Below the pieces are notes generated by a model. The model searched no databases and was not told where the DNA came from. It was given only the letters and a program-made list of their open reading frames with translations. A stretch of 63,978 nucleotides of DNA, filler included, from Collodictyon triciliatum (lineage: Eukaryota): the NCBI GenBank assembly GCA_043381765.1. It is 17 parts of 17 records of this genome, joined end to end, with 100 filler letters (N's around TTAATTAATTAA, not from the genome) between each part and the next. Parts side by side here need not be neighbours in the genome. Positions count along the whole stretch, not along the records: positions 15,074 to 18,740 come from JBHJMP010007017.1; 16 more parts are not named here. One strand, 5' to 3'. The translations under genes and the position numbers were made by a program. The first letter of the stretch is position 1, and each line of letters opens with the position of its first letter. Below are positions 5,139-33,635 of the stretch, one piece after another.

Positions 5139-7166
5139 ATGCTGCACAAGGCCGTCTTCGCCCTCCTGACCACGCTGGTCGCCTCTGCGCTGGGCAGCAC
5201 ACTGCTGCCCTTCAACACGGACGGCAATGCAACCTTCCTGACAGGTCTAGACGACTCTTGCCATAGCGTGGCGGGCTCTGTCGTGTTCTTTGGCCTGGCT
5301 TTCAGCTCCATCTACGTCTGCACAAACGGCGTCCTCTCGCTCGACCAGTCCTTCACCGTGAGCAGCACCAGCCCGCTGCCTTTCTTCGGCCGCGCACTCA
5401 TTGCCCCCTTCTGGAACGATCTGGACACACGCAACCAGGATGGCAGCGGCGCCGGGCGCGTCTACTACGAGGCGATCCCCACGGGCACGACCTACTCGGC
5501 CCAGTATGACAGCTACGTGCGAGGCAGCGACCCGTCTGGCGCCCACGCCTCCTTCACGGCCTCGCGCATCTTCCAGGTCACGTGGAGCGAGGTGGGCACC
5601 TACCCGCGCGTCACCTTCCCCAACAACACCTTCCAGGCTGCCATCGTCACCGACGACTGGGACTACTTTGTTGTCTTCAACTACCCTGAAGGCCTCATCA
5701 ATCTCCCGCTCTCGGGCACCACTGTCGGTGTCGCTGTCGGTGATTCCTACAACTACTTCATTCCGAGCTTTTCCCGCCAGAACGTGTCCCGTGCCGCTTA
5801 CGAGTCGAACATTGGAGTTCCTGGTGTCTGGCTGTGGAACGTTGGTTTGTTGGCTCTCTGCTTCTTCCATCTTTCGTTCCGGATACTTTCTTTTTTCGAT
5901 TTTTTTTTTTTAAAAAAAAATAAGAGCAACATTGCCAATGTATGAAAAGTTTCTCCTTTGTCCCTTGAAAATGTTTCTATTTTCTCTCCCAATATTCAGC
6001 GTGAATGTTTATTTTCTCTCTGACTTTGAGGGGCAAATAAGTACACAAATGCATTATTGAAAGGGTTTTCTCTATGGAAACGCTTACAGGAAACTCACTG
6101 CCCAGCCCGACCTTCAGCCAGAGCCCAACTGCTTCACAAAGTCGAACTGCTTCACAGTCACCGTCGCAAAGCCCTTCGCTTCCAGATGGCGCCATGGTGT
6201 ACCGAAACATTCACGGCAAGTCAAATGCACTTGGATACTCGGTGTCTGCCGAAGGAAACGAAGTAGCCATTAGTCAGCCCTCCTGTTCTGAATACAGTCA
6301 GAGCGACAAAGCCTGCGGAAAGGTGTACCTACTTCAAACATCATCCGAGGGCTGGTGGCTGAAGCAATACTTCCAGTACCTGGGGAAAGCAGTCTACAGT
6401 CGCTTCGGAACAAAAGTCCTTCTTCAGAATGGATGGCTCCTCGTCCAGTCCGAGGCTCTCTATGATACCTCTTCATACACAGAAATGTCTGCTGTGTACG
6501 GCTTTCGCTACAACCCTTCTGTGAACCGCTACGTTCGTAAGTTCTCTATAACCTCTCCGATTTCGCAAAACTGGCAATATTACGGAAGTGCGATTGCCAT
6601 GGACGGCAACTTTACTTTCGTTTCGTCGCCTTACATCGATACGGATGGCTATATGGATAACGGAATTGTCTTTGGCTATCACTATCCCAAATCGATCGAC
6701 CGAGTTCAGGGCCCAAGGTATCTTACAATCAAGTCTCCAAACATCCAGTCTTATGAAAACTTTGGCAAGGCTGTTGCCGCGTCCGCTGGTCTGTTGGTAG
6801 TGTCTGCGGGTAACGTATATGCTGCTGTCCAAGACATTTTGTGTGTTTTTACGTACTCCATGGATAACACTACCCTCGTACAAACACTTTATCCCAGCAA
6901 CTCGTACTCATACTTTTATGGAAGCAACGTTATCTTTGATGGATACAACCTCTTCGTCGCGGCGCAAGGGTACTCTGCAAATGTCTACAAGAGCGGTTCG
7001 GTCTATCGCTATACCTTAAACCAATATGGCACTTTTGAAGAGTCAGACTTTATCACTCCCTACGATACCCCTCACATGGCGTACTTTGGTACTTCCATGG
7101 CATACAATCGCGAGGGACAGTATCTTGTTGTTGGATCGACATGCGGTGACACCTGTGGAGTTCGAG
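5139..7166 (+). CDS. Secreted or surface protein: signal peptide + NIDO domain + Ser/Pro/Thr linker + FG-GAP beta-propeller (3'-truncated)
   Basis: Exon 5139-5844 has MLHKAVFALLTTLVASALG and the NIDO motifs LIAPFWNDLDTR, GRVYY, FQVTW, NTFQAAIVTD and SNIGVPGVW. Exon 6090-7166 has six FG-GAP-like repeats (LGYSVSAEG, FGTKVLLQN, YGSAIAMDG, FGKAVAASA, YGSNVIFDG, FGTSMAYN). The intron is GT-AG, phase 1. Confidence 0.85.
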
Positions 7167-7569
7167 GTTTCTTTTTATTTTACTTTGTTTTCCTGTCTAT
7201 TTATATCCTTTTTTTTTTTCCCTTTACATTCATGGGCTCTTTTTCTTCATTTATCTATATACTTCCACAATTTAATTGGTCTGGTAATGTACGTTCCAGT
7301 TGCAAGTATTTGTTTTTTTATTTTTTTTTCTTTTTTGATATTTATTTATTCTATATATCTAGAATAAATAAATATCAGTTTATTTCGTGCTTTATTGTTT
7401 TATGCGTTTTTTTACCTATTATTATATCTAATTCAATANNNNNNNNNNNNNNNNNNNNNNNNNNNNNNNNNNNNNNNNNNNNTTAATTAATTAANNNNNN
7501 NNNNNNNNNNNNNNNNNNNNNNNNNNNNNNNNNNNNNNCAATTCTATTTTTTCAAGACGAAAACAGTAA

Positions 7570-14727: not shown

Positions 14728-17415
14728 TCGTGTTCCTGTTGTTAGGTAGTTGTTAGGCCCGGAGGTTCGGCTCTTATTGAATTCCCATTTTGTTTTGTTT
14801 TTGTTTTCTGTTTTTGTTTTTTGTATTTGTTTTGTTTTGTTTTTGTTTTTGTTTTTGTTTTTGTTTTTGTTTTTGTTTTTTGTATTTGTTTTTTGTATTT
14901 GTTTTTTGTATTTGTTTTTTGTATTTGTTTTTTGTATTTGTTTTTTGTATTTGTTTTTTGTATTTGTTTTTTGNNNNNNNNNNNNNNNNNNNNNNNNNNN
15001 NNNNNNNNNNNNNNNNNTTAATTAATTAANNNNNNNNNNNNNNNNNNNNNNNNNNNNNNNNNNNNNNNNNNNNAATTCTCAATTATAAATTACCTTTGAA
15101 ACGATTGTGCTCGTAAATTTATTAACATTCAGACTTTTGTTGCCTTTCTCATAGTAATAATTATATTTTGTATCAAAAATCTAGTACTAACCTTAGTGCA
15201 ATAGACTTATTCTATTCAGAGCTCCAAAGAACCTTTATAGCACATAGTCTACAAATTCTCAATGAAATTATATATATATACATTAAACATATCACTATAA
15301 ATAGTCAAAATAATAAATCAATTTTTATCAGAGTGATTTGGTTTTGATTAGTATAGCTGGTTTTAGTTCAATGAATCATGTTAATATGGTGACTGTGACA
15401 AATATGTCCCTTAAAGAGAGTTCAATTAAAAATCACTATTTTAGAGACTTATGATAGAAAATGAGATAATAATTGATATGAATCAGATAAATAAATGCAT
15501 AATAATACGGGTTGTGAATCATGAAATCTATTAGAGATGATATCCAACATTCACACAACATATCTTTATTACTGCAATCAGTTGTTAATGAAATTTTACC
15601 GAATATTAGGATGTAGTTCATCTCTTGAGCCCTATTTTGTACATAGATGGTTATTCTTCAAGGGTTAAATATTTTAAATATAGTCAATAATATAGTTAAC
15701 TGAAAGACAATTTGCTAAGTTATATAAAATCATAATTTTAATTTCTATCAGATATTATCGAATCCATGTTCTAAAGGAAATATTTTTTGTTTGCTCCTGT
15801 ATGATATTCATTCGATGTACTCCAGCGAACAGTAATTTATTTTATCATTGAACAATATCAGAGTAAGTTATCTAACAATATGACTATTATAAAGTTATGA
15901 TTATCTGATTAATTATATGCATAAATATTATACGGAAGCAATAAACGAATTGAATCAGTATATCTCGATAAATATGCACATCATGAGAATGAATAATTAT
16001 AGGTTGATTAATTTTAATTGTATTTTCTTGATTTTATACTTTTCATTTAGAGGAATATTAAAATAAATGTTCAACCAATAAAGCAATTTTTCAAAGGATA
16101 CCACTGATTCTGGTAAACAATATCTCATGAAATTATATTTTACAATATTCATCTGATGAAGAATCTATTAATTCTTGCACTTAAATTTGTTATCGTATAT
16201 CATTTCAATTTTAATGTTATTTCCATTAAATATCTAATAATTAATCAATATAACAATTGATTAGTTATTAAAATTATATGTCATTAACCACTTCTTACTT
16301 TTAAACATCATATCATCCGCTCATCTAATTTTGGAATGCTTAGAAAACGAGGACTTAATGTATGATATATTTTTGATCGATTAATTAAAATATTGGATGT
16401 TTTGTGAATTTAGACGCTGTTTTAAAGAATAAATGATTAAAAAACCAATTATCAATTATTTCTTTACTTTATCAATATTTATATACGAAATGTGAAAAAT
16501 ATAACCAAATGATTGGCATGTGTTTTCCTTGATGACATGTTATTCATAATTTTAATATACACTTAATTTCTTGATAAGCTCAACATATATCTGTTTTATC
16601 ATATTGCATCCTTTTAAAATCGTGCAAATTGTTAGAATTATAATAATAAATTCCATATTTTTAATTATAGGTGTGCTATTTTTAATTATAGGTGTGCTAT
16701 TTTTTGATTTAAAAGTGCATATAATTGATTGATAAAGTCTTCTGTGGAATCGTAAGCTATTTTTGGTCACCACAATTTATTGATTTATCACTTAGACAAA
16801 CCAAACCTATTCTTCTCAAACTGAAACATGTATTATCGTATCATTTAAACTTAAACTTGAATTTTTTGATTTATTCTCATGTCCTATTCACAATGAGGCT
16901 AATTTGCATGAGTCCCATACTTAATATTGTTTTCCGTATGTCGTAAATTGATATATTTGTTTTTAAGGCATGATTTATCTAATAATTGATTAGTGATTTT
17001 CCTATAAGCATCAAATCAAAATCTACTTATAACTGATACAAAAATGACCTTGCTAAAAATATAACCGAAGACTAATGAATTTTTATCAATTAATTTTTGA
17101 GTTGAAATCGATTTAACCTGATATGATGACTATTTTGCATTTTTAATATATATGATTTGATTGAATAAGTCACTATACCATCAAATAAAATAGTCATGTT
17201 TATCCATGGATATGAATAAGAGTATTCTATAGATTTATTTATGAGTATTATTGAAGTTATGTGTAGATAGTCTATCTATGTATTTTTGAATGAATCAATT
17301 AAAATTTGAGTAGAGTGATTCAATATTAGATGTTTAAGAAAATATGTTGATTGGGTATTACACTATTTCGTTATATGTTATATAAATGTTTAAACAGTCA
17401 TCACATTAGTTTAGA

Positions 17416-18740
17416 ATGAGATTGAACTCAAAGTCGTTTGCAGCTCTGTTGCTGTTGGGTGAGTTTTAAATTGTTTGTTTTTATTTTATTGACCACAAAT
17501 TACATAGAATTTTAATTGATATATCTTTAGGATTGATACTCCACTGCCAATTGTGTCTTGTTGAAGGGCAAGATGATTCGATTCGCACGTTGACTGGTCA
17601 TACTAGTGTTGTTACCAGTGTTGCTGTTACTCCTGATGGTTCAAAAATTATTTCTGGAAGCTATAAAGAAATCAAAATCTGGAATCTTTCTGATGGAGCT
17701 TTGATTCGCACATTGACTGGCCATACTAGTATTGTTGAAAGTGTTGCCGTTACTCCTGATGGTTCAAAAATTGTTTCTGGAAGTGATGATAGTACAATCA
17801 AAATCTGGAACCTTTCTGATGGAGCTTTGATTCGCACATTGACTGGTCATACTAGTGTCGTTTACAGCGTTGCTGTTACTCCTGATGGTTCAAAAATTGT
17901 TTCTGGAAGTTATCAAGAAATCAAACTTTGGAATCTTTCCGATGGGTCTTTGATTCGCACATTGACTGGCCATGACTATAGTGTTGTTACCAGTGTTGCT
18001 GTTACTCCTGATGGTTCAAAAATTGTTTCTGGAGGTTACGATAATACAATCAAAATCTGGAATCTTTCTGATGGAGCTTTGATTCGCACATTGACTGGTC
18101 ATACTAGTGTCGTTTACAGCGTTGCTGTTACTCCTGATGGTTCAAAAATTGTATCTGGAAGTTATGATAATACAATCAAAATCTGGAATCTTTCTGATGG
18201 AGCCGTGATTCGCACATTGACTGGTCATACTAGTTATGTTAACAGTGTTGCTGTTACTCCTGATGGCTCAAAAATTGTTTCTGGAAGTTGGGATAATACA
18301 ATCAAAATATGGAATCTTTCTGATGGAACTTTGATACGCACATTGACTGGTCATACTTGGATTGTTTACAGTGTTGCTGTTACTCCTGATGGCTCAAAAA
18401 TTATTTCTGGAAGTGGTGATAATACAATCAAAATCTGGGGACTTTGTGTCGCTGGTCAGTTTTATGATTCAGTTTCAAAGTCTTGTCAAATATGCCCATC
18501 TGGAAGCTATAGTGCCGGAGGAACATCATCTTGTCTTTCATGCCCAAGTGGCACATACAATCCATCAACTGGTTCTACAAATGTTGGTGCTTGTCTTTCA
18601 TGTGCAGCTGGAACATACAACCCATTAACTGGTTCTACAAGTGTTGGTGCTTGTATATCATGCGCAGCTGGCACATACAATCCATCAACAGGTTCAACAA
18701 GTGTTGGTGCTTGTCTTTCATGTGCAGCTGGAACATACAA
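17416..18740 (+). CDS. Signal peptide + seven near-identical WD40 repeats + Cys-rich (GCC2/GCC3, ephrin-receptor-like) repeats (3'-truncated)
   Basis: Exon 17416-17458, intron GTGAGT..TTTAG at 17459-17530, exon from 17531, giving MRLNSKSFAALLLLGLILHCQLCLVEG/QDD. There are seven ~126-bp WD units at 17581-18438 and 60-bp CxxGTYNPxTGSTxVGACxS units from 18541. Confidence 0.92.
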
Positions 18741-18840: not shown

Positions 18841-18950
18841 TCATTTTATTCATTTTATTCATTTTATTCATTTTATTCATTTTATTCATTTTATTCATTT
18901 TATTCATTTTATTCATTTTATTCATTTTATTCATTTTATTCATTTTATTC
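18841..18950. repeat. (TCATTTTAT)n tandem repeat, intronic
   Basis: Read directly from the sequence. Confidence 0.95.
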
Positions 18951-19060
18951 ATTTATTCGCTTATTTTGTTTCGATTGACCATGTAATATTGGTTATATAT
19001 TGTGTCGGAATGAGTTTGATGGACTCGTTCTTTTTCATAAAGATTACTAATCAACATCAG

Positions 19061-20255
19061 GATGCGCTGTATTTGGTGTCACTGAACACCAGCATCATTC
19101 AAGGCTATCAAAAGGCAGTGCTAACTCCAAATAATGTTGAGTTTTCCAGGCTTTGGAAAGCTGTTTATCATTCGGACTTGCCTGAAGATACGCAACTCGA
19201 AGAGAAGATAAGGCAAACAAATGATTTGTCTCTGAGGTGAGAGTGGAAGATACATCGTCTATCATTCCCTTTTTAAAGGCATACTATGAAACGATATAAT
19301 TTAAAAAAAAAGAATGCATTAAATATATCGTATGTAGTACTAATTGGGGTTTCTTGTCACATCTAATCGTAGGTTTGGTGGAGTTACAATGATAAGGAAA
19401 GGACCGATTGATATCATCTCCAACGGCACAGATTGTATTTTTATTTATTTTTTCGCTTTATTTTTCGTTTTATTTTTTCGTTTTATTTTTTCGTTTTATT
19501 TTTTCGTTTTATTTTTTCGTTTTATTTTTTCGTTTTATTTTTTCGTTTTATTTTTTCGTTTTATTTTCGTTTTATTTTTTCGTTTTATTTTTTCGTTTTA
19601 TTTTTTCGTTTTATTTTTTCGTTTTATTTTTTGTTTTTTCGTTTGATTTTCGTTTGATTTTATATTTATTGATCGTTTTAGTTTTATTATATCATGTTAT
19701 ATTTCGTTTTATTTTATATATTGTATTCAAATATTTTACCGCCTGCTGGCAATATATATCACTTGTCTCGCTCAGCGATTTTATGAGCGACATAGCGCAA
19801 TTTTGAAAGCAAAAAAGTGAATGACTTTCTCTTACCAGATCGACTTTGCGAAGAACAAGGTAGTCCCCGCCGATGCGGGGGTCAGGGCGATGTGTTGGCG
19901 GGAGCCGTCGGCATATTTTCTGCCTGGGCAATTGGGATGGGTCGCACTGGATTCAGGTGAATACACAGTAAGAGCGGCTATTTGAACGAGAGAGAGAAAA
20001 AAAAGGATAATCCCCATAATTATCTCCTGTCGAATGGCTTTTAACTTTCTCTAAAACTTTCTTCCGAGCTTTCAAAGATGGATAACATCGTGATATTTAT
20101 ATCATAGCACATTGGACGCTGCCTTGGCATCGTGTATCATTACAAAGCGTTGTGCCAATTCAGCATTTGAGAAGCATTTTCGTTCCACAACTACCATCGA
20201 AATCATGAAGGAAATCGGTCCAGTTTTCCAAAGTGCATTTCCATCGAGTCTGTAA
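19061..20255 (+). CDS. NAXD: ATP-dependent NAD(P)H-hydrate dehydratase (YjeF C-terminal family), 3' half
   Basis: Four exons: AVLTPNNVEFSRL, TMIRKGPIDIISNG, GSPRRCGGQGDVLAG, and a last exon ending FPSSL-TAA. Confidence 0.93.
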
Positions 20256-20377: not shown

Positions 20378-20463
<86 letters not shown>

Positions 20464-22598: not shown

Positions 22599-23638
22599 CA
22601 AGTGCAACAAGGTCGGCAAGCCTGTCATCACGGCCACACAGATGCTCGAGTCCATGATCAAGAACCCCCGCCCAACCCGCGCTGAGGCCACCGATGTAGC
22701 CAACGCCGTCTTTGACGGAACCGACTGCGTCATGCTCTCGGGCGAGACAGCCAAGGGTAAAGTCATCCATTCCTCCGTCTCATAGATGCCCTATGGTTTC
22801 TTCAATCAGTCTATTCATCAATCTATTCATCCATCCATTCATCCATTCATCCATTCATCCATCCATTCATCCATTCATCCATTCATTCATTCATCCATCC
22901 ATTCATCCATTCATCCATTCATCCATTCATCCATTCATCCATTCATCCATTCATCCATCCATTCATCCATTCATCCATTCATCCATCCATCCATTCATCC
23001 AACCATCAGGCCACTAATTCAAAATACTCAAATCGCTCATCCAGGTGACTACCCCTGCGAAGCCATCCGCACCATGGCCAACATCTGCCGCGAGGCCGAG
23101 AGCCACATCGACTACCGCGAGCTGTATCAGAAGCTGCGCGCAAACGTCGTGCCACCCATCAGCATCGCAGAGTCCATCGCCTCCTCAGCCGTCAAGACCT
23201 GCTGGGACATCAACGCCAAGGTTTGCAATCTTCTCCTACATACGCACAGAGTGTGATGGCTCTTCAAGTGGCGCCCTTGCACGCCAAGCAAGCACTAACC
23301 GCAGTCCTCCTTCTCCTTCTCCTTCTCCTCCCTGCCAGCTGCTGATTGTCGTCACCGACACGGGCACAAGCGGCCGCCTTGTCTCGCGCTTCAGACCGCA
23401 CTGCCCCGTCCTGTGCGTGACCCGCTCCGAGGAGGTTGCGCGCCGCCTGCTTGTCCACCGCGCCTGCTACCCGTACCTGACTCACTCCATCACAAACTCG
23501 GATGCTGTCTTCCAGCGCGTCATCGAGAAGGCCACGGAGCTCGGTCTCTGCCACGCCGGCGACCAGGTTGTCGTCACGTCCGGCAGCGTCGAGGGCGTCC
23601 CCGGCGCAACTAACATCATGAAGGTCATCACCGTCTAA
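22599..23638 (+). CDS. PYK: Pyruvate kinase, C-terminal part
   Basis: [51 protein letters not shown] and C-terminal [14 protein letters not shown]. Introns at 22757-23044 and 23221-23338. Confidence 0.97.
22805..23000. repeat. (CATC/CATT)n intronic microsatellite
   Basis: Read directly from the sequence. Confidence 0.95.
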
Positions 23639-24121
23639 ATGGGCGCACCAGCCGGGTGGATTTGGTCGGCCGCCTTTGCTGCATCGCCATCGTCATCGTC
23701 ATCGCCATCGTCGCCGTCGCCGTCGCCGTCGATTATCTTCGTGGAGCACCAAACTTTTTCTTTTTTTCCGGCTGCAGATTCTTGAGTCACTTATATTGTT
23801 GCTTTTAATCCCTTTTGTCGTCCTCTTTTTCTTTTTTTCCACCTCTCTTTCCCAATAAGAAAGAGAATCAAGACCTTGTGACAATATAAGTTTCTCTCAA
23901 ATATCCTTTCTTGCTAACAAGCCGTAACGAGTTCCTTTTTTTTTCTTCCTCCTGCTGCTGTTCCAAAGACATCTTCGTATAGCCATAGTTTTTTTTTTTT
24001 TTTAACATAAGCAGGTTACTTGTCGAGTAGTATTATATTCAAAAAAAAATATTAGAAAGGGAAGATTAGCGAGTAATTAATTTCACGTCTGCATACGCCA
24101 TACTTTCAAATATGAGATGTA

Positions 24122-24815
24122 GTGTTCCTCCCGAAACACCGCGCCCTACTTCTCAATATCTCCAACAGAGAGCTGTGGATAGGTGCGCGCGTAGTCCATG
24201 CAGCAACGACCTCCCCAGAATGCACCATGTGCCATAGTGGAGATGACTCTATCGAATACACATTTGTGAAGTGCTCTCTTGCTCTAAAAGTGACAGAATC
24301 TACCCACAAGATGCTCTCTGAGCTTGATTATGCTCCCAGCCGTCTCAGCGCGTCTGACATTCTGTTTGGCCCACAATACCAAATGACCCACGACTCTAGA
24401 ATACTCTGGACAGTCACAAGGGGACATATCTTATTGCCCTTATGGAGTGTGCGTGCATTCTCTCGCTCCAATGATTCACCCGAACGAGAAATCAATGTAT
24501 CCAGGCTTGAGAGCCTCGTGCAATACAGCTTCCTGAACAGCCTGCTGAAACACACCCGCATTCTTTGCTACTCTGACCGCAAGCGAAGAGAGATGTGGGA
24601 ATGTGTCGTGCGGTATCTCCCACAGCATATCCAACCCCTGCTACCCACGCAACCAATAAACCAGTTGGGTCGCCCACCTGGCCAACTCGCTATCACTGAT
24701 TTCTTTCCAGAAGTGACTTCTTCAGATTAGGGTCATCTCTTACTCGCGTTAGCCCTCCTCCTGTGCATATTTTATTCACACGGCATGTGGTTCAACCCAT
24801 AAATCTAGGAGGGAA
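24122..24815 (+). mobile_element. 5'-truncated L1/Tx1-like non-LTR retrotransposon (ORF2 C-terminal zf-RVT-like region + 3' UTR), family A
   Basis: PKHRALLL..ECTMCHSGDDSIEYTFVKC resembles the CxxC..H..C zinc knuckle of L1-clade ORF2, with His replaced by Tyr. It has no introns, has homologous copies on two other contigs, and ends AATAAAAAAA. Confidence 0.75.
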
Positions 24816-29359: not shown

Positions 29360-29695
29360 TTTTCTTGAATTCCATTGTTTTATTCTTCCTTTCAATTCTG
29401 TCCTGGACGATGGGGGTTTGGCTTTGGTTCGCTAGCCATCTTTTGCGCGGAGGCTACTTAGTGACTGGGTGGCTAATTAGTCGGCAATCAGGATTCCCAT
29501 CTTGTGTTGGAGACTGTTGCTTGGGTCTTGTGCTTACATGAGAGGCAAGATGAGGTTTAATACCTTTCTCAGCTTCTTTCCACATTTCTCTTTTCACAGG
29601 GTCTGAGTAATCGAGAACGTGAAGGTGGCGAAGAAAGCTGCTGAGGAATGATATTTGCATGATATCATCCAGTCTCTTGTCGGGAATCAGCGGGT
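29360..29695 (-). mobile_element. 3' end of a second, diverged member (family B) of the same non-LTR clade
   Basis: RLDDIMQISFLSSFLRHLHVLDYSDPVKREMW aligns with family A RLESLVQYSFLNSLLKHTRILCYSDRKRREMW. It is followed by a stop, AATAAA and an A-rich end. Confidence 0.6.
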
Positions 29696-30125
29696 TTTTC
29701 CTTTTATTTGACTCAAACCGCAACAATGTAAAATCACAAAAAAAAAAAAAAAGTGCGCATGGGAGAGAGCAAACACGATAGGAGAAGACACTTTTGGGAG
29801 AGGCCAGCACTGGAAAGAAGTCAGTGATAGCGAGTTGGTCAGGTGGGCGTCCCAACTGGCTGATTGATTGCGTGGGTAGCGGGGGTTGGATATGCTGTGG
29901 GAGATATCGCACGGAACATTCCCGCATCTCTCTTTGCCTGCGGTCAGAGTAGCGAAGAATGCGCGCGTGTTTCAGTAAGCTATTCAGGAAGCTGTATTGC
30001 ACGAGGCTCTCAAGCCTCGATACATTGATTTCTCGTTCGGGTAAATCATTGGAGCGAGAGAATGCACGCACACTCCATAAGGCCCACAGCATATGTCCCC
30101 TTGTGACTGTCCAGAGTATTCTAGA
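29696..30125 (-). mobile_element. Non-LTR retrotransposon family A, 3' fragment (runs off the contig end)
   Basis: The reverse complement is nearly identical to 24395-24720 and ends GTTTGAGTCAAATAAAAGGAAAAA. Confidence 0.85.
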
Positions 30126-30386
30126 NNNNNNNNNNNNNNNNNNNNNNNNNNNNNNNNNNNNNNNNNNNNTTAATTAATTAANNNNNNNNNNNNNNNNNNN
30201 NNNNNNNNNNNNNNNNNNNNNNNNNATCTTTTTTTATCATCTTTTTTTATCATCTTTTTTTATCATCTTTTTTTATCATCTTTTTTTATCATCTTTTTTT
30301 ATCATCTTTTTTTATCATCTTTTTGTGCAGAACAACAACAAAGGTGGGGAACCAGACAAAAGAAGCCACAAGCAAAGAGGCCTTAC

Positions 30387-30680: not shown

Positions 30681-32144
30681 CTTTCCGGGTGATCGGGAAA
30701 CAACTTCTGATTCACGCTGGCTTGGAGGGAAAAAAAAAAAGGAAAACCTTCTAGTTATATCTGGATTTTATATATAATGTTTATTATTTATAGTTCATAT
30801 TTATAAATAGTACCAATATTATATAATACTATATTGAATATGTATTATTATTATGATAATATTATTGAAATGCATAGTGTTGACATTTGCTTTTCCTTTG
30901 TGAAGCGTTTGTGTTGACATATAAAAATAGAACACATGTGGCTGTTTTCATCGGCCACACGAAACGCATTAGTCGTGTGTGGCTAATTTTATACGGCCAG
31001 ATTTGTATGTTGATGGTAGACATAGTCTTATTCTGTCACCAAGAATCCTACCTTTTGTCCCCACAAAAAATTATGTTTAAAATAGGCAAGTGTGTGAAGA
31101 AACAGAAAAGACGGTCAGCCTATTTTTGGAAATTACATGGATATATTCTATTCCTGGATAATACTATACTTATGATTAAATATAATTAATATGCAGTATA
31201 TGTGCATAGAGATGCTGGATTATATAAATTTATACAAATATTATAGTGAAAAAAAAATATGGGAATCGGCTCTTCCCAAGGCAAAGCATACCAACTTTTG
31301 ATGCAAACTGGAATGGTATTTTGTGAGACAGAGCAAAAGATTAAGGAAAAAGCTCGCGTCTGCAAGATCATGCGGGAGAGTATATCCGAGTGTGAACATA
31401 TATTTGGTCAATGCAAACCAAGCCGCGGGTTTCAAGCGAGGCAGATCGTTTGTTCTGCAGGCAGAGAAGCAGAATAACACGAAGCAGGTATGCCAGTGGG
31501 ATAGTGGAAGGATGTATCCGTGTGGGTGTATGTTTGGCGGGTGGTTGTTTGCGTCGCCTTGTTGATGTGCCCACGTGTATACTGGGCAAAGTATGAAGCC
31601 TAATTTCCTTCTGTCTGCCTCTGTTGGGGACTGGCGACTCTTCGTAGTCTCGGTCTTTCCGTCTCCGTGAATCTGCTTGCTTTCCAGTCCGACTATTCGC
31701 TTTCCTTTCCTTCTGTATTAAAAGTATGATGTTAACAAAACATACCACCCAACCTTGGGGTTCCTTTCGCCTTTCGCCTCATCAGCCATTGAAGTTCTCG
31801 TTTAGTCACAAAAGAAAGAAAAAAGTCCCTCGTTTCACAATCACCGTCAAGAATCAAACACGCGGTCGACGTGGCAGATTCCCATTTCACTTATTTGACT
31901 TTTTCTAACATAAGCTTGAGAAACAAAAACAAAACAAACAAAACAAAACAAAACAAAACAAACAAAAACAAACACAAAACAAAACAAATCAAAAAACAAC
32001 AAAAAACAACAAAAAACAACAAAAAACAACAAAAAAACAACAAAAAAACAACAAAAAACAACAAAAAAACAACAAAGAACAAAAGCAAAAAGCAAAAGGA
32101 CCACTCCCACTCCCACTCCCACTCACTGACGTATTCTCAGAAAC

Positions 32145-33635
32145 ATGAGTGCGCTTCCCTCCCCAAGCCCGGCGATAGTCATCCTCGATCCCCGTCAGAT
32201 ACAACCAGACGATGTCGACTCCGAAGCCGAAACAGACACGGAGGCCGATCTCTACCCTGTTTGGGAGGGGCACTCTGGACGGACAAAGTCCCTGCCTGGA
32301 GGCTCGCCAAGCGGACGGGATTCGAGGACCCACTCACAGAAACCGCCGACCCAACCGCGAGGCTCTCGCCGAACGCGGGAGTCTGTGTCTTGCTCGGCCC
32401 TGCCAGCGCCTTCGTCGGCCCGATGTTCCTTTGTGCAGCCGGCCGTGTCTGTCCTCCCAACGCCGCCGCTGCCGGCCCTTCCGGGGCTGCCGAGCCTCTA
32501 CGAGCGAGATTCAGACCACCGGGCCGCAGCCCCGCCCGGCGATCTGTTCAAGACAGAGATGTGCCGCTCGTACGAAGAGAACGGCTGGTGCCGCTACGGA
32601 CCCAAGTGCCAGTTTGCCCACGGGTACGAGGAGCTCCGACAGCCGCCGCGCCACCCAAAGTACAAGACAGAGATCTGTATGACCTCTCATTCTGTGCGAT
32701 CCACTCGCGCCACATGATACCCTCCCACCAAACCAACATTCATACAGAGGCCTTTTTGTTTTCTCTCCTGTGAAATGATAAGGAGCGGCAAAGAACCACA
32801 CAGAAATGAAAGGCGTGCCGCCCACTCGCTCGCACACAAATACTTACGCACATGCACACGCACACGCACACATTCAGGCAAGACATTCCACTCGATCGGG
32901 ACGTGCCAGTACGGAAAGCGGTGCCGATTCATCCACAACACGCCGCCACCCGAAAACGTGAACCAGCTTCTGCCTTGCGCCTCGCACCCGGTCGCCATCG
33001 CAGGGCCAGCAGCAAACAGCCTCAACGCCCTCGGTTCGATCCCGGCCGGGTGCATGGCCTTGTCAACCACCCCGGATGACAGCCACGGGAGATCGCTTCT
33101 TCCACCACCGCTTCTGCCTTTGCCTCTGCCTGTGCCTGTGGCCATGTCCTTTCCTCTGCCGTACGCATACCCACCTTTGGCACACAATGCAGCCGCCCTT
33201 CAGCCCCAGTCGCCGCGGCCGTCCTTCCTCTGCGACGAGCAATCCGCAACACCGGCGCATTCTCCCTTCCGACACGACTCGGCCACGTGGTCCTATGCTT
33301 CGCCCTTTGTCGCGTCTGATACATCGTCCATGGCATCCGACTTCTCGGACAGTGGCGTCCGCTCACGCTCCAGCTCCACACGGTCGCGGGGCGATTCTGT
33401 CAGAAGGCGTCTCCACATCTTTGAAGAGCTTGGCAGTGCCTGCGAGTCTCAGGCGCAAACACATACTTGGCAGACGCCCGACTCGGTTGCAAAGCTGCCA
33501 CCACGTTGCCCTCCGCTGGATCTCTGCATCGACATCGACATCAGCGTTGAGGACCTCGAGGTATCCAGCCCCACTTTCAATGCTGCGGTGATGGCCTCCG
33601 TCGACGCCATATTGGACGATGGCCACGACAACTGA
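32145..33635 (+). CDS. Tristetraprolin/TIS11-family tandem CCCH zinc-finger ARE-binding protein
   Basis: [35 protein letters not shown], intron 32677-32877, then [22 protein letters not shown]1-binding-like [10 protein letters not shown] follows. The start codon is uncertain. Confidence 0.92.

Follow-up and report, generated by a model that had tools for sequence, protein, structure and literature searches.

The stretch of DNA analyzed here (the window, 63,978 bases from the Collodictyon triciliatum assembly GCA_043381765.1) carries on one of its contigs a gene in which a predicted signal peptide leads into a canonical seven-bladed WD40 propeller, followed in the same reading frame by tandem Cys-rich repeats. 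It is likely that the encoded protein is secreted or anchored at the cell surface, where it would show the top face of the WD40 propeller on a disulfide-rich stalk. We lean to the same degree toward reading this sequence as at most the 5′ two thirds of a real eukaryotic gene whose product enters the secretory pathway; the gene exits the contig at its 3′ end, inside the Cys-rich array (18740). The contig and the features along it are as follows.

15074-18740, no strand assigned: gene-bearing contig (JBHJMP010007017.1), 3,667 bases, GC 0.296, artificial spacers on both sides
15074-17415, + strand: upstream region, AT-rich, with no recognizable coding sequence (0 Pfam matches in 10 open reading frames (ORFs))
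17416-17458, + strand: exon 1, with the ATG, an n-region made basic by R2 and K6, and the leading half of the predicted signal-peptide core; 43 nt, ending in phase 1
17459-17530, + strand: predicted spliceosomal intron, GTGAGT..CTTTAG; 72 nt, GC 0.19
17531-17568, + strand: start of exon 2, with the second half of the predicted signal-peptide core and a V-E-G c-region (hydropathy and -3/-1 rule)
17569-18444, + strand: seven-bladed WD40 propeller (Pfam, AlphaFold2, Foldseek)
18445-18740, + strand: Cys-rich Ephrin_rec_like/TNFR-like repeats (Pfam), 11 Cys in 98 residues, ended by the contig end

The WD40 propeller and the variation between its blades

The repeat array was detected by Tandem Repeats Finder (period of 126 bp, 6.8 copies, 87% matches) and by Pfam, where the WD40 family (PF00400) scored 259.8 bits against a cut-off of 27 over 7 stretches; the Pfam matches of the propeller were to canonical WD40 families only (25 of 57 shown). 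The units start at 17581, 17704, 17830, 17953, 18082, 18208, and 18334, with lengths of 41/42/41/43/42/42 residues; the last one ends at the motif IKIW, and the whole array covers 17581-18438. The signature of a WD40 unit is a pair of dipeptides, GH and WD. Here, GH was present in all seven units, and the closing dipeptide was W-N in six of them and W-G in the last, never W-D.

An AlphaFold2 model built from a 56-row alignment (A1) reached a mean pLDDT (predicted local distance difference test) of 85.2, with ~98 over residues 15-305 and ~50 over the tail. In this model, 28 strands (residues 17-304) form seven four-stranded blades in a closed propeller, and the first mature strand (S-I-R-T-L, from 17578) takes the outer position in blade 7. 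The propeller would be closed by this strand in the "velcro" fashion of a canonical seven-bladed WD40 domain, and, since the strand completes blade 7 in the model, the boundaries of the signal peptide, propeller, and stalk would be exact. The top match of a Foldseek comparison with the PDB was 7big_A, a designed seven-bladed consensus WD40 protein (target-normalized template modeling score (TM-score) of 0.97, root-mean-square deviation of 0.7 Å, 51% identity); further matches included 5yzv (a Thermomonospora WD40 domain), 2ymu (a "highly repetitive propeller structure"), and WDR5. The seven starts, the 7 Pfam stretches, and the seven modeled blades agree with the exact count of seven units given in the original prediction. 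The 292-residue propeller contains 0 Cys, and one N-L-S sequon is found in each of blades 1-6.

To locate the differences between blades, the seven units were compared in a 43-column codon alignment. The amino acids vary in columns 9, 10, 11, and 13 (patch 1), in columns 28-31 (patch 2), and in columns 25, 35, 37, 42, and 43, i.e., in 8 of the 10 patch columns and in 5 of the 32 columns elsewhere (Fisher p=3.7e-4, the patches being defined post hoc). The strings found after GH (TSVVT, TSIVE, TSVVY, DYSVVT, TSVVY, TSYVN, and TWIVY) and after SG (SYKE, SDDST, SYQE, GYDNT, SYDNT, SWDNT, and SGDNT) are exactly those first reported, and the multi-nucleotide codon swaps (ACC/GAA/TAC/AAC, AGT/TGG, and GTT/TAT) and in-frame indels (unit 4 has an extra GAC, and units 1 and 3 lack an ACA codon) described with them were recovered as well. 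The strongest variation concerns two codon pairs, 18 codons apart, each of which flanks a conserved residue (V, D). In the AlphaFold2 model, patch 1 corresponds to the D-A loop together with the beginning of strand A, and patch 2 to the B-C turn. These elements make up the top face in the WD40 topology, and mapping the variable residues on the structure, as had been suggested, placed both patches in top-face loops of the model.

The pairwise nucleotide identity of the units ranges from 82 to 90%, and the pooled dS in the scaffold codons is ~0.21, meaning that their description as nearly identical even at synonymous sites was overstated. In the patches, dN was 0.41 and dS 0.23 (dN/dS of 1.75; 2.38 for patch 1 and 1.13 for patch 2), compared with a dN/dS of 0.16 in the scaffold. 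Counted as minimal events, the scaffold changes comprised 6 nonsynonymous and 12 synonymous ones (purifying selection, p=2.6e-4), and the patch changes 15 nonsynonymous and 3 synonymous ones, where the neutral expectation for the nonsynonymous share is 0.81 (binomial p=0.53). Patch and scaffold differ in their event classes (Fisher p=0.006). With seven units, the patch ratio is indistinguishable from neutrality, and positive selection at these codons does not follow from it. As the patch events match the neutral share and the scaffold is under purifying selection, the loops on this constrained scaffold evolve in either a relaxed or a diversifying manner, and the data cannot separate the two.

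Units 3 and 5 differ at 0 of 63 positions in their 5′ half and at 12 of 60 in their 3′ half (p=1e-4), a mosaic from which it follows that units have exchanged sequence. The four-gamete test was failed by 20 of the 55 informative site pairs, and the variants of patch 1 and patch 2 are re-assorted among units 1, 3, 4, and 5. Such a mosaic pattern would be the signature of gene conversion or unequal exchange, and the blades may be young copies of one 126-bp unit that have exchanged segments. Because the blades differ mainly at their top-face loops, the propeller would present an asymmetric ligand-binding surface outside the cell.

The two ends of the gene

From 17531, the frame of exon 2 is open for 404 codons up to the contig end and contains no Met at all; hence, an upstream exon is required. 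The exon 1 proposed here is the nearest upstream exon that fits in phase, and it supplies the sole Met of the 417-residue spliced model. In this model, 19-residue windows with a Kyte-Doolittle value above 1.6 start only at residues 6-10, and the hydrophobic stretch is preceded by R2 and K6 and followed by V-E-G. The splice is predicted to unite two hydrophobic halves into a classical signal peptide directly before the propeller, with cleavage predicted after 17568. The protein would accordingly start with a cleavable signal peptide split by the 72-nt intron, and the propeller would begin within three residues of it. The idea of a first exon with a signal peptide, missed by the ORF annotation, was thus well founded as far as a reading of the sequence goes, since the only Met and the only hydrophobic segment both come in through a canonical in-frame splice. 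It is from these features that we infer splicing and secretion.

The stretch as a whole was found in none of 13 public runs, all of which contained less than half of its words (best share of 0.09), and contigs of four of them (X1, X4, X10, and X9) were aligned to it at 85% likeness or more. An X4 contig (1,068 nt) and an X10 contig (916 nt) extend from the upstream region through exon 1 into the start of the intron, within which they diverge (29 differences and 10 gaps over 17100-17437/17473). As they retain the start of the intron, these contigs look like DNA and are uninformative on splicing. They show that the last ~300 nt before the gene are ~90% conserved in these two runs. A second contig of X4 matches exon 1 from 17408 on, with a different 5′ flank before it.

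At the other end, the propeller is connected to the tail by a linker of two residues, G-L. Tandem Repeats Finder reported a 60-bp period in the tail (3.5 copies, 86% matches, 18530-18740), and the Pfam family Ephrin_rec_like (PF07699; Ephrin_rec_like / GCC2_GCC3) scored 56.9 bits against a cut-off of 23.1, in agreement with the tandem 20-residue Cys-rich repeats of the original prediction. TNFR_ELAPOR1_6th just reached its cut-off (33.4 vs 33.2 bits), and TNFR_c6 stayed under its own (28.2 vs 29.4 bits). Judged by its PF07699 match, the tail is an extracellular-type disulfide domain. After the G-L linker, these disulfide-rich Ephrin_rec_like/TNFR-like modules probably hold the propeller off the membrane or matrix, a role as a stalk that we infer along with ligand binding by the propeller. 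The run of Ns past 18740 marks the end of the contig and no scaffold-internal gap, the sequence from 18841 on being unrelated. Beyond that end, the gene might continue with more stalk, then with a transmembrane (TM) helix, a glycosylphosphatidylinositol signal or nothing, and possibly with a cytoplasmic domain.

The junction between the two domains has a counterpart in other data. One X1 contig and one X10 contig join a WD40 unit (up to the Trp codon of IKIW, 18312) to the stalk (from 18441) through 14 other letters, which, compared with the junction of unit 7, corresponds to an additional 12 nt, i.e., four extra linker codons, in frame. An X1 contig covers 18441-18618 of the Cys-rich sequence with 15 differences. 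A diverged relative with a matching WD40-to-stalk junction is present in two independent data sets, so that the fusion is real, which argues against a chimeric contig.

Relatives, comparable systems, and alternative readings

When the whole fragment was used as a query, the best 120 proteins (222-707 residues) matched mainly the WD40 part, i.e., ~70% of the query, with identities of up to 63%. All 36 of the rows naming an organism were bacterial, mostly Nostocales/filamentous cyanobacteria, and many of the bacterial matches are named Ser/Thr kinases or trypsin-like peptidase proteins. The Cys-rich query retrieved Ephrin_rec_like proteins from metagenomes and scattered eukaryotes (40-63% identity), none of which lists PF00400. 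In the ESM Atlas, WD40 clusters only were found (best score of 0.85), and in the literature searched no PF00400 propeller was described as carried by an Ephrin_rec_like stalk. Long matches in the loci L062, L052, L074, L005, L019, and L053 were rejected as single-domain alignments stretched across the junction.

Among the matches listed, the highest propeller identities (55-63%) were those of cyanobacterial Ser/Thr-kinase-WD40 and trypsin-like-peptidase-WD40 proteins, and 2ymu and 5yzv are solved structures related to this cyanobacterial-type propeller. A crude hydropathy scan of the 27 bacterial relatives of at least 55% identity in A1 gave a hydrophobic 19-mer ahead of the WD40 domain in 12 of them, namely, nine kinase-TM-WD40 proteins, where it lies ~20 residues before the domain and the kinase side is richer in K/R, and three peptidase-WD40 proteins, where it is N-terminal. 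The same crude scan found a hydrophobic segment before the WD40 domain in 55 of all 120 listed matches. The closest relatives of the propeller, which are cyanobacterial, are often predicted to face the periplasm. The statement that WD40 domains are rarely extracellular can be kept for eukaryotes but not for bacteria, given these 12 close relatives out of 27. In the cyanobacterial Ser/Thr-kinase-WD40 proteins P0015, P0017, P0095, P0073, P0087, and others, the TM-like helix ~20 residues before the WD40 domain suggests a receptor-kinase-like topology with a periplasmic WD40 sensor.

Unlike the gene studied here, the cyanobacterial proteins are intron-free, lack the Ephrin_rec_like tail, and carry the propeller C-terminal to a kinase or peptidase. 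Conversely, the present gene has no upstream kinase, a GT-AG intron near its start, and a eukaryotic-type tail, which sets it apart from the bacterial kinase-TM-WD40 sensors. That the closest cyanobacterial proteins look extracytoplasmic raises the question of a gene transfer from cyanobacteria; since both are near-consensus repeats (51% identity to the designed consensus propeller), the high identity may partly reflect this resemblance rather than a transfer.

In architecture, the closest described system is the ectodomain of the plant CRINKLY4 receptor kinases (ACR4, PpCR4), in which a signal peptide precedes a seven-bladed propeller that a short linker connects to a TNFR-like Cys-rich domain (bioRxiv 10.1101/2020.08.10.245050). 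According to that study, each blade of the CR4 propeller carries a disulfide, the propeller's N-terminal strand is buried, BLIP-II is its nearest structural neighbor, with UVR8 superposing too, and the Cys-rich domain of CR4 is one 90-residue beta-sandwich. In the gene described here, a tandem 20-residue array takes the place of this domain, and the propeller is a sequence-canonical PF00400 with 0 Cys. Any equivalent of the TM helix and cytoplasmic kinase of the CRINKLY4 receptors would lie beyond the contig end. BLIP-II and UVR8 are RCC1-type folds. As canonical WD40 blades free of Cys contrast with the one-disulfide blades of CR4, the gene is an analogue of CR4 in architecture and no member of the CRINKLY4 family.

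Ephrin_rec_like repeats (40-63% identical) are also combined with other beta-propellers in uncharacterized protist and metagenome proteins, where the partners are RCC1 (P0288, 1,577 aa, cluster of 302; P0326, cluster of 274), NHL (P0130, P0143, and P0188), and Kelch (P0286). Unlike the present gene, these proteins carry no WD40 domain, and no experimental study of them was found in the literature searched. P0288, P0312, P0318, P0326, P0330, P0331, and P0336 represent a large, uncharacterized metagenome family of ~1,600-residue RCC1 and TNFR/Ephrin_rec_like proteins with clusters of up to 302, which recalls the CRINKLY4 ectodomain plan outside plants.

A last comparison concerns an environmental WD40-TM arrangement (locus L066:70-594 and protein P0362), with near-identical WD40 units of the matching type followed by a short linker (E-C-V-N-C-P), one TM-like helix, and an Arg-rich basic tail. 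Given this basic tail and the positive-inside rule, its propeller is probably membrane-anchored on the non-cytoplasmic side. Unlike the present gene, it has no Ephrin_rec_like stalk; both sequences are fragments. A search with the TM tail of L066 gave 3 matches in 1.84 billion representatives, P0362 and P0363 being fragments.

Seven-bladed propellers known from outside the cell come from other repeat families, as in CRINKLY4 and in the RCC1, Kelch, and NHL combinations. YWTD, FG-GAP, and EPTP are further propellers found outside the cell. To our knowledge, sequence-canonical WD40 propellers of eukaryotes are treated as cytoplasmic or nuclear scaffolds. If the WD40 protein described here is indeed secreted, the fold would work in the oxidizing secretory environment without disulfides, and it would be a natural counterpart to the designed consensus propellers.

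Several points weigh against a secreted or surface-anchored product of a real eukaryotic gene. The signal-peptide call rests on hydropathy and the -3/-1 rule, and the joint 17458/17531 was absent from the contigs of the four aligned runs; X9, the sole declared RNA run, yielded 5 WD40-like pieces, none above 95% likeness. The low confidence of the modeled tail (pLDDT of ~50) means that it is called a stalk by analogy. The C-terminus lies beyond the contig end, with any membrane anchor or signaling part, and a TM-like segment follows the repeats in 13 of 120 Cys-rich relatives, most of which are fragments. Both domains occurred together in 0 of 360 retrieved proteins (219 WD40 and 141 Cys-rich, compared by local phmmer) and both parts in 0 of 80 metagenome loci (13 WD40 and 67 Cys-rich; 80 loci kept of 336 confirmed), leaving no family to lean on. 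The protein searches list top-scoring proteins only and are swamped by multi-blade WD40 or multi-repeat Cys-rich proteins, so distant proteins of the same architecture may be outranked. The longest exact repeat between units spans 89 nt (17812/18064), from which a short-read assembler could create the unit order, the mosaic or the count of seven. Finally, the GC content at third codon positions (GC3) is 0.21 in the WD40 gene (17530-18738) vs 0.37-0.71 in the ORFs compared on other contigs of the window (45646-48684, 23198-23638, 32130-32717, and 6041-7300). This gap makes the source organism of the contig uncertain, and the contig may derive from an organism associated with the sequenced one.

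A more far-reaching reading, which we regard as doubtful, places the gene in a multigene family of surface recognition receptors with shuffled WD40 blades and positive selection on the top face, an extracellular counterpart of the HNWD system. In the work on Podospora anserina HNWD/NWD proteins (HET-D, HET-E, and HET-R), 42-residue WD40 arrays with high internal conservation vary at codons 7/9 and 25/27, around 8 and 26 (PMC1805685). The variable codons found here have this geometry, as was originally proposed, with two pairs, 18 codons apart, one in the D-A loop/strand A and the other in the B-C turn, and with a conserved residue between the two codons of each pair. As in HNWD, the units exchange sequence (the mosaic of units 3 and 5; 20 of 55 pairs), in an assembly made from short reads. 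Unlike HNWD, the gene has no HET or NACHT domain and instead a predicted signal peptide and an extracellular-type Cys-rich tail; its units are less alike (82-90%), its patch dN/dS of 1.75 comes with p=0.53, and the host is another one.

For such a family speak, besides this geometry, the excess of dN over dS in the patches (1.75, and 2.38 in patch 1) vs 0.16 in the scaffold, the in-frame indels placed exactly in the two loops, and the mosaic units. In X4, 53 contigs align to the stretch, ten of them at least 99% alike despite a flank only ~90% alike, and to these are added the second X4 exon-1 contig and the relative with a different linker in X1 and X10. However, with seven units the patch ratio remains neutral-like (15 of 18 events nonsynonymous vs 0.81 expected), the patches were chosen post hoc, and the blades of any WD40 protein vary in these loops. 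No other copy of the gene lies within the window, the excess depth of contigs over the WD40 units is not usable as a copy number, nor are summed contig depths, and the C-terminus lies beyond the contig. A receptor function, a gene family, and diversifying selection go beyond what these data show.

It is improbable that the 5′ end is wrong, i.e., that the protein is cytoplasmic, with exon 2 joined to exons on another contig (for example, those of an NTPase of the NOD-like receptor (NLR) type) and with a hydrophobic start that is coincidental. Kinases or NTPases of the NACHT/STAND (signal transduction ATPases with numerous domains) class usually precede highly repetitive WD40 arrays of this kind, and no spliced contig across 17458/17531 was found in the four runs. 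Against this, the 10 ORFs of the 2.3 kb upstream contain neither NACHT nor any other Pfam domain, and the predicted hydrophobic start precedes the propeller, so the N-terminal NACHT domain named earlier as a possible refutation was not seen. Exon 1 lies only 72 nt upstream, with consensus splice sites in the right phase and a hydrophobic run that continues into exon 2; other runs contain conserved versions of exon 1 and its flank, and the C-terminal PF07699 is of an extracellular type.

An assembly artefact or a dead gene, be it a WD40/Cys-rich chimera, a collapsed or mis-ordered array, or an unexpressed pseudogene, is distinctly improbable. The assembly is short-read and fragmentary, the 89-nt exact repeat and a contig ending inside a tandem array would favor such errors, and the run contigs gave no expression signal. 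However, 404 codons are open across both domains in sequence of 30% GC, the sequence at the junction is unique, a WD40 blade is linked in frame to the same Cys-rich sequence by contigs of two other runs, and the seven units have exact propeller boundaries with a pLDDT of ~98. We consider nearly negligible the reading in which there is no intron and TAA encodes Gln (ciliate-type code), with an unspliced ORF that starts at 17290 or 17416 and includes the 72 nt: the frame is open under table 6 from 17290 into the gene, and the presumed intron holds 24 in-frame codons with a single TAA (17467-17469), but Gln is encoded by CAA or CAG at all five of its positions in the 404-residue frame, with no other in-frame TAA/TAG, an unspliced product would begin with an odd leader of 51 residues interrupted by charges where the spliced one gives a clean signal peptide with GTGAGT/TTTAG borders, and another contig carries an ORF of 1,012 codons that the standard code leaves open.

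With the secreted or surface-anchored WD40 protein as the preferred reading, a broader scenario can be formulated, although it is quite unlikely as a whole. A freshwater eukaryote (or a cohabiting organism) would have moved an NLR-style homogenized WD40 array into the secretory pathway and formed a small surface or secreted recognition family, with a propeller perhaps captured from a cyanobacterial extracytoplasmic sensor, where blade shuffling and loop-codon turnover create binding diversity. If true, this would be a third kind of repeat-based variable receptor beside leucine-rich repeat receptors and the fungal cytoplasmic systems based on WD40, ankyrin (ANK), and tetratricopeptide (TPR) repeats. 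Were both the family and the selection real, repeat-shuffling recognition repertoires would extend from cytoplasmic NLRs to the cell surface of a microbial eukaryote.

Source of the contig and the rest of the window

The window consists of 17 contigs of 3,658-3,763 bases each, roughly sorted by length and joined by spacers of the form N44-TTAATTAATTAA-N44 (16 counted vs 0.08 expected). As these contigs are joined without physical linkage, any "context" across a spacer is meaningless. The GC of 0.296 of the gene-bearing contig is the minimum of the window. The ORFs of other contigs contain NIDO, FG-GAP_2, pyruvate kinase, zf-RVT, and PP-loop domains, with very different codon use, and may come from another organism than the WD40 gene. 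The spread in codon use may reflect an assembly that mixes organisms or a genome that is compositionally very heterogeneous.

On one of these contigs, a NIDO (nidogen-like) ORF (5151-5942) is followed by an ORF with FG-GAP_2 repeats (6041-7300); the two resemble a further gene, or pair of genes, of the extracellular-matrix type. An ORF segment matching zf-RVT (reverse-transcriptase zinc-binding) recurs in closely similar form on two different contigs, at 24116-24730 (+ strand) and 29454-30173 (- strand), and is probably a remnant of a dispersed retroelement without long terminal repeats (non-LTR).

The contig next to that of the WD40 gene is rich in microsatellites (18841-18958, 19444-19637, and ~20380-20460), with a 9-mer repeated 13 times, a 13-mer repeated 15 times, and an A run of ~80 bases, and comparable simple repeats were seen on many contigs of the window. 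A protein with tandem CCCH zinc fingers is encoded on a GC-rich contig (32130-33635); its frame shifts inside the second finger in an intron-like manner, and, by its motif, the protein is presumably of the tristetraprolin/TIS11 type. The sole Rfam match of the window is a transfer RNA gene at 41643-41726 (58.9 bits).

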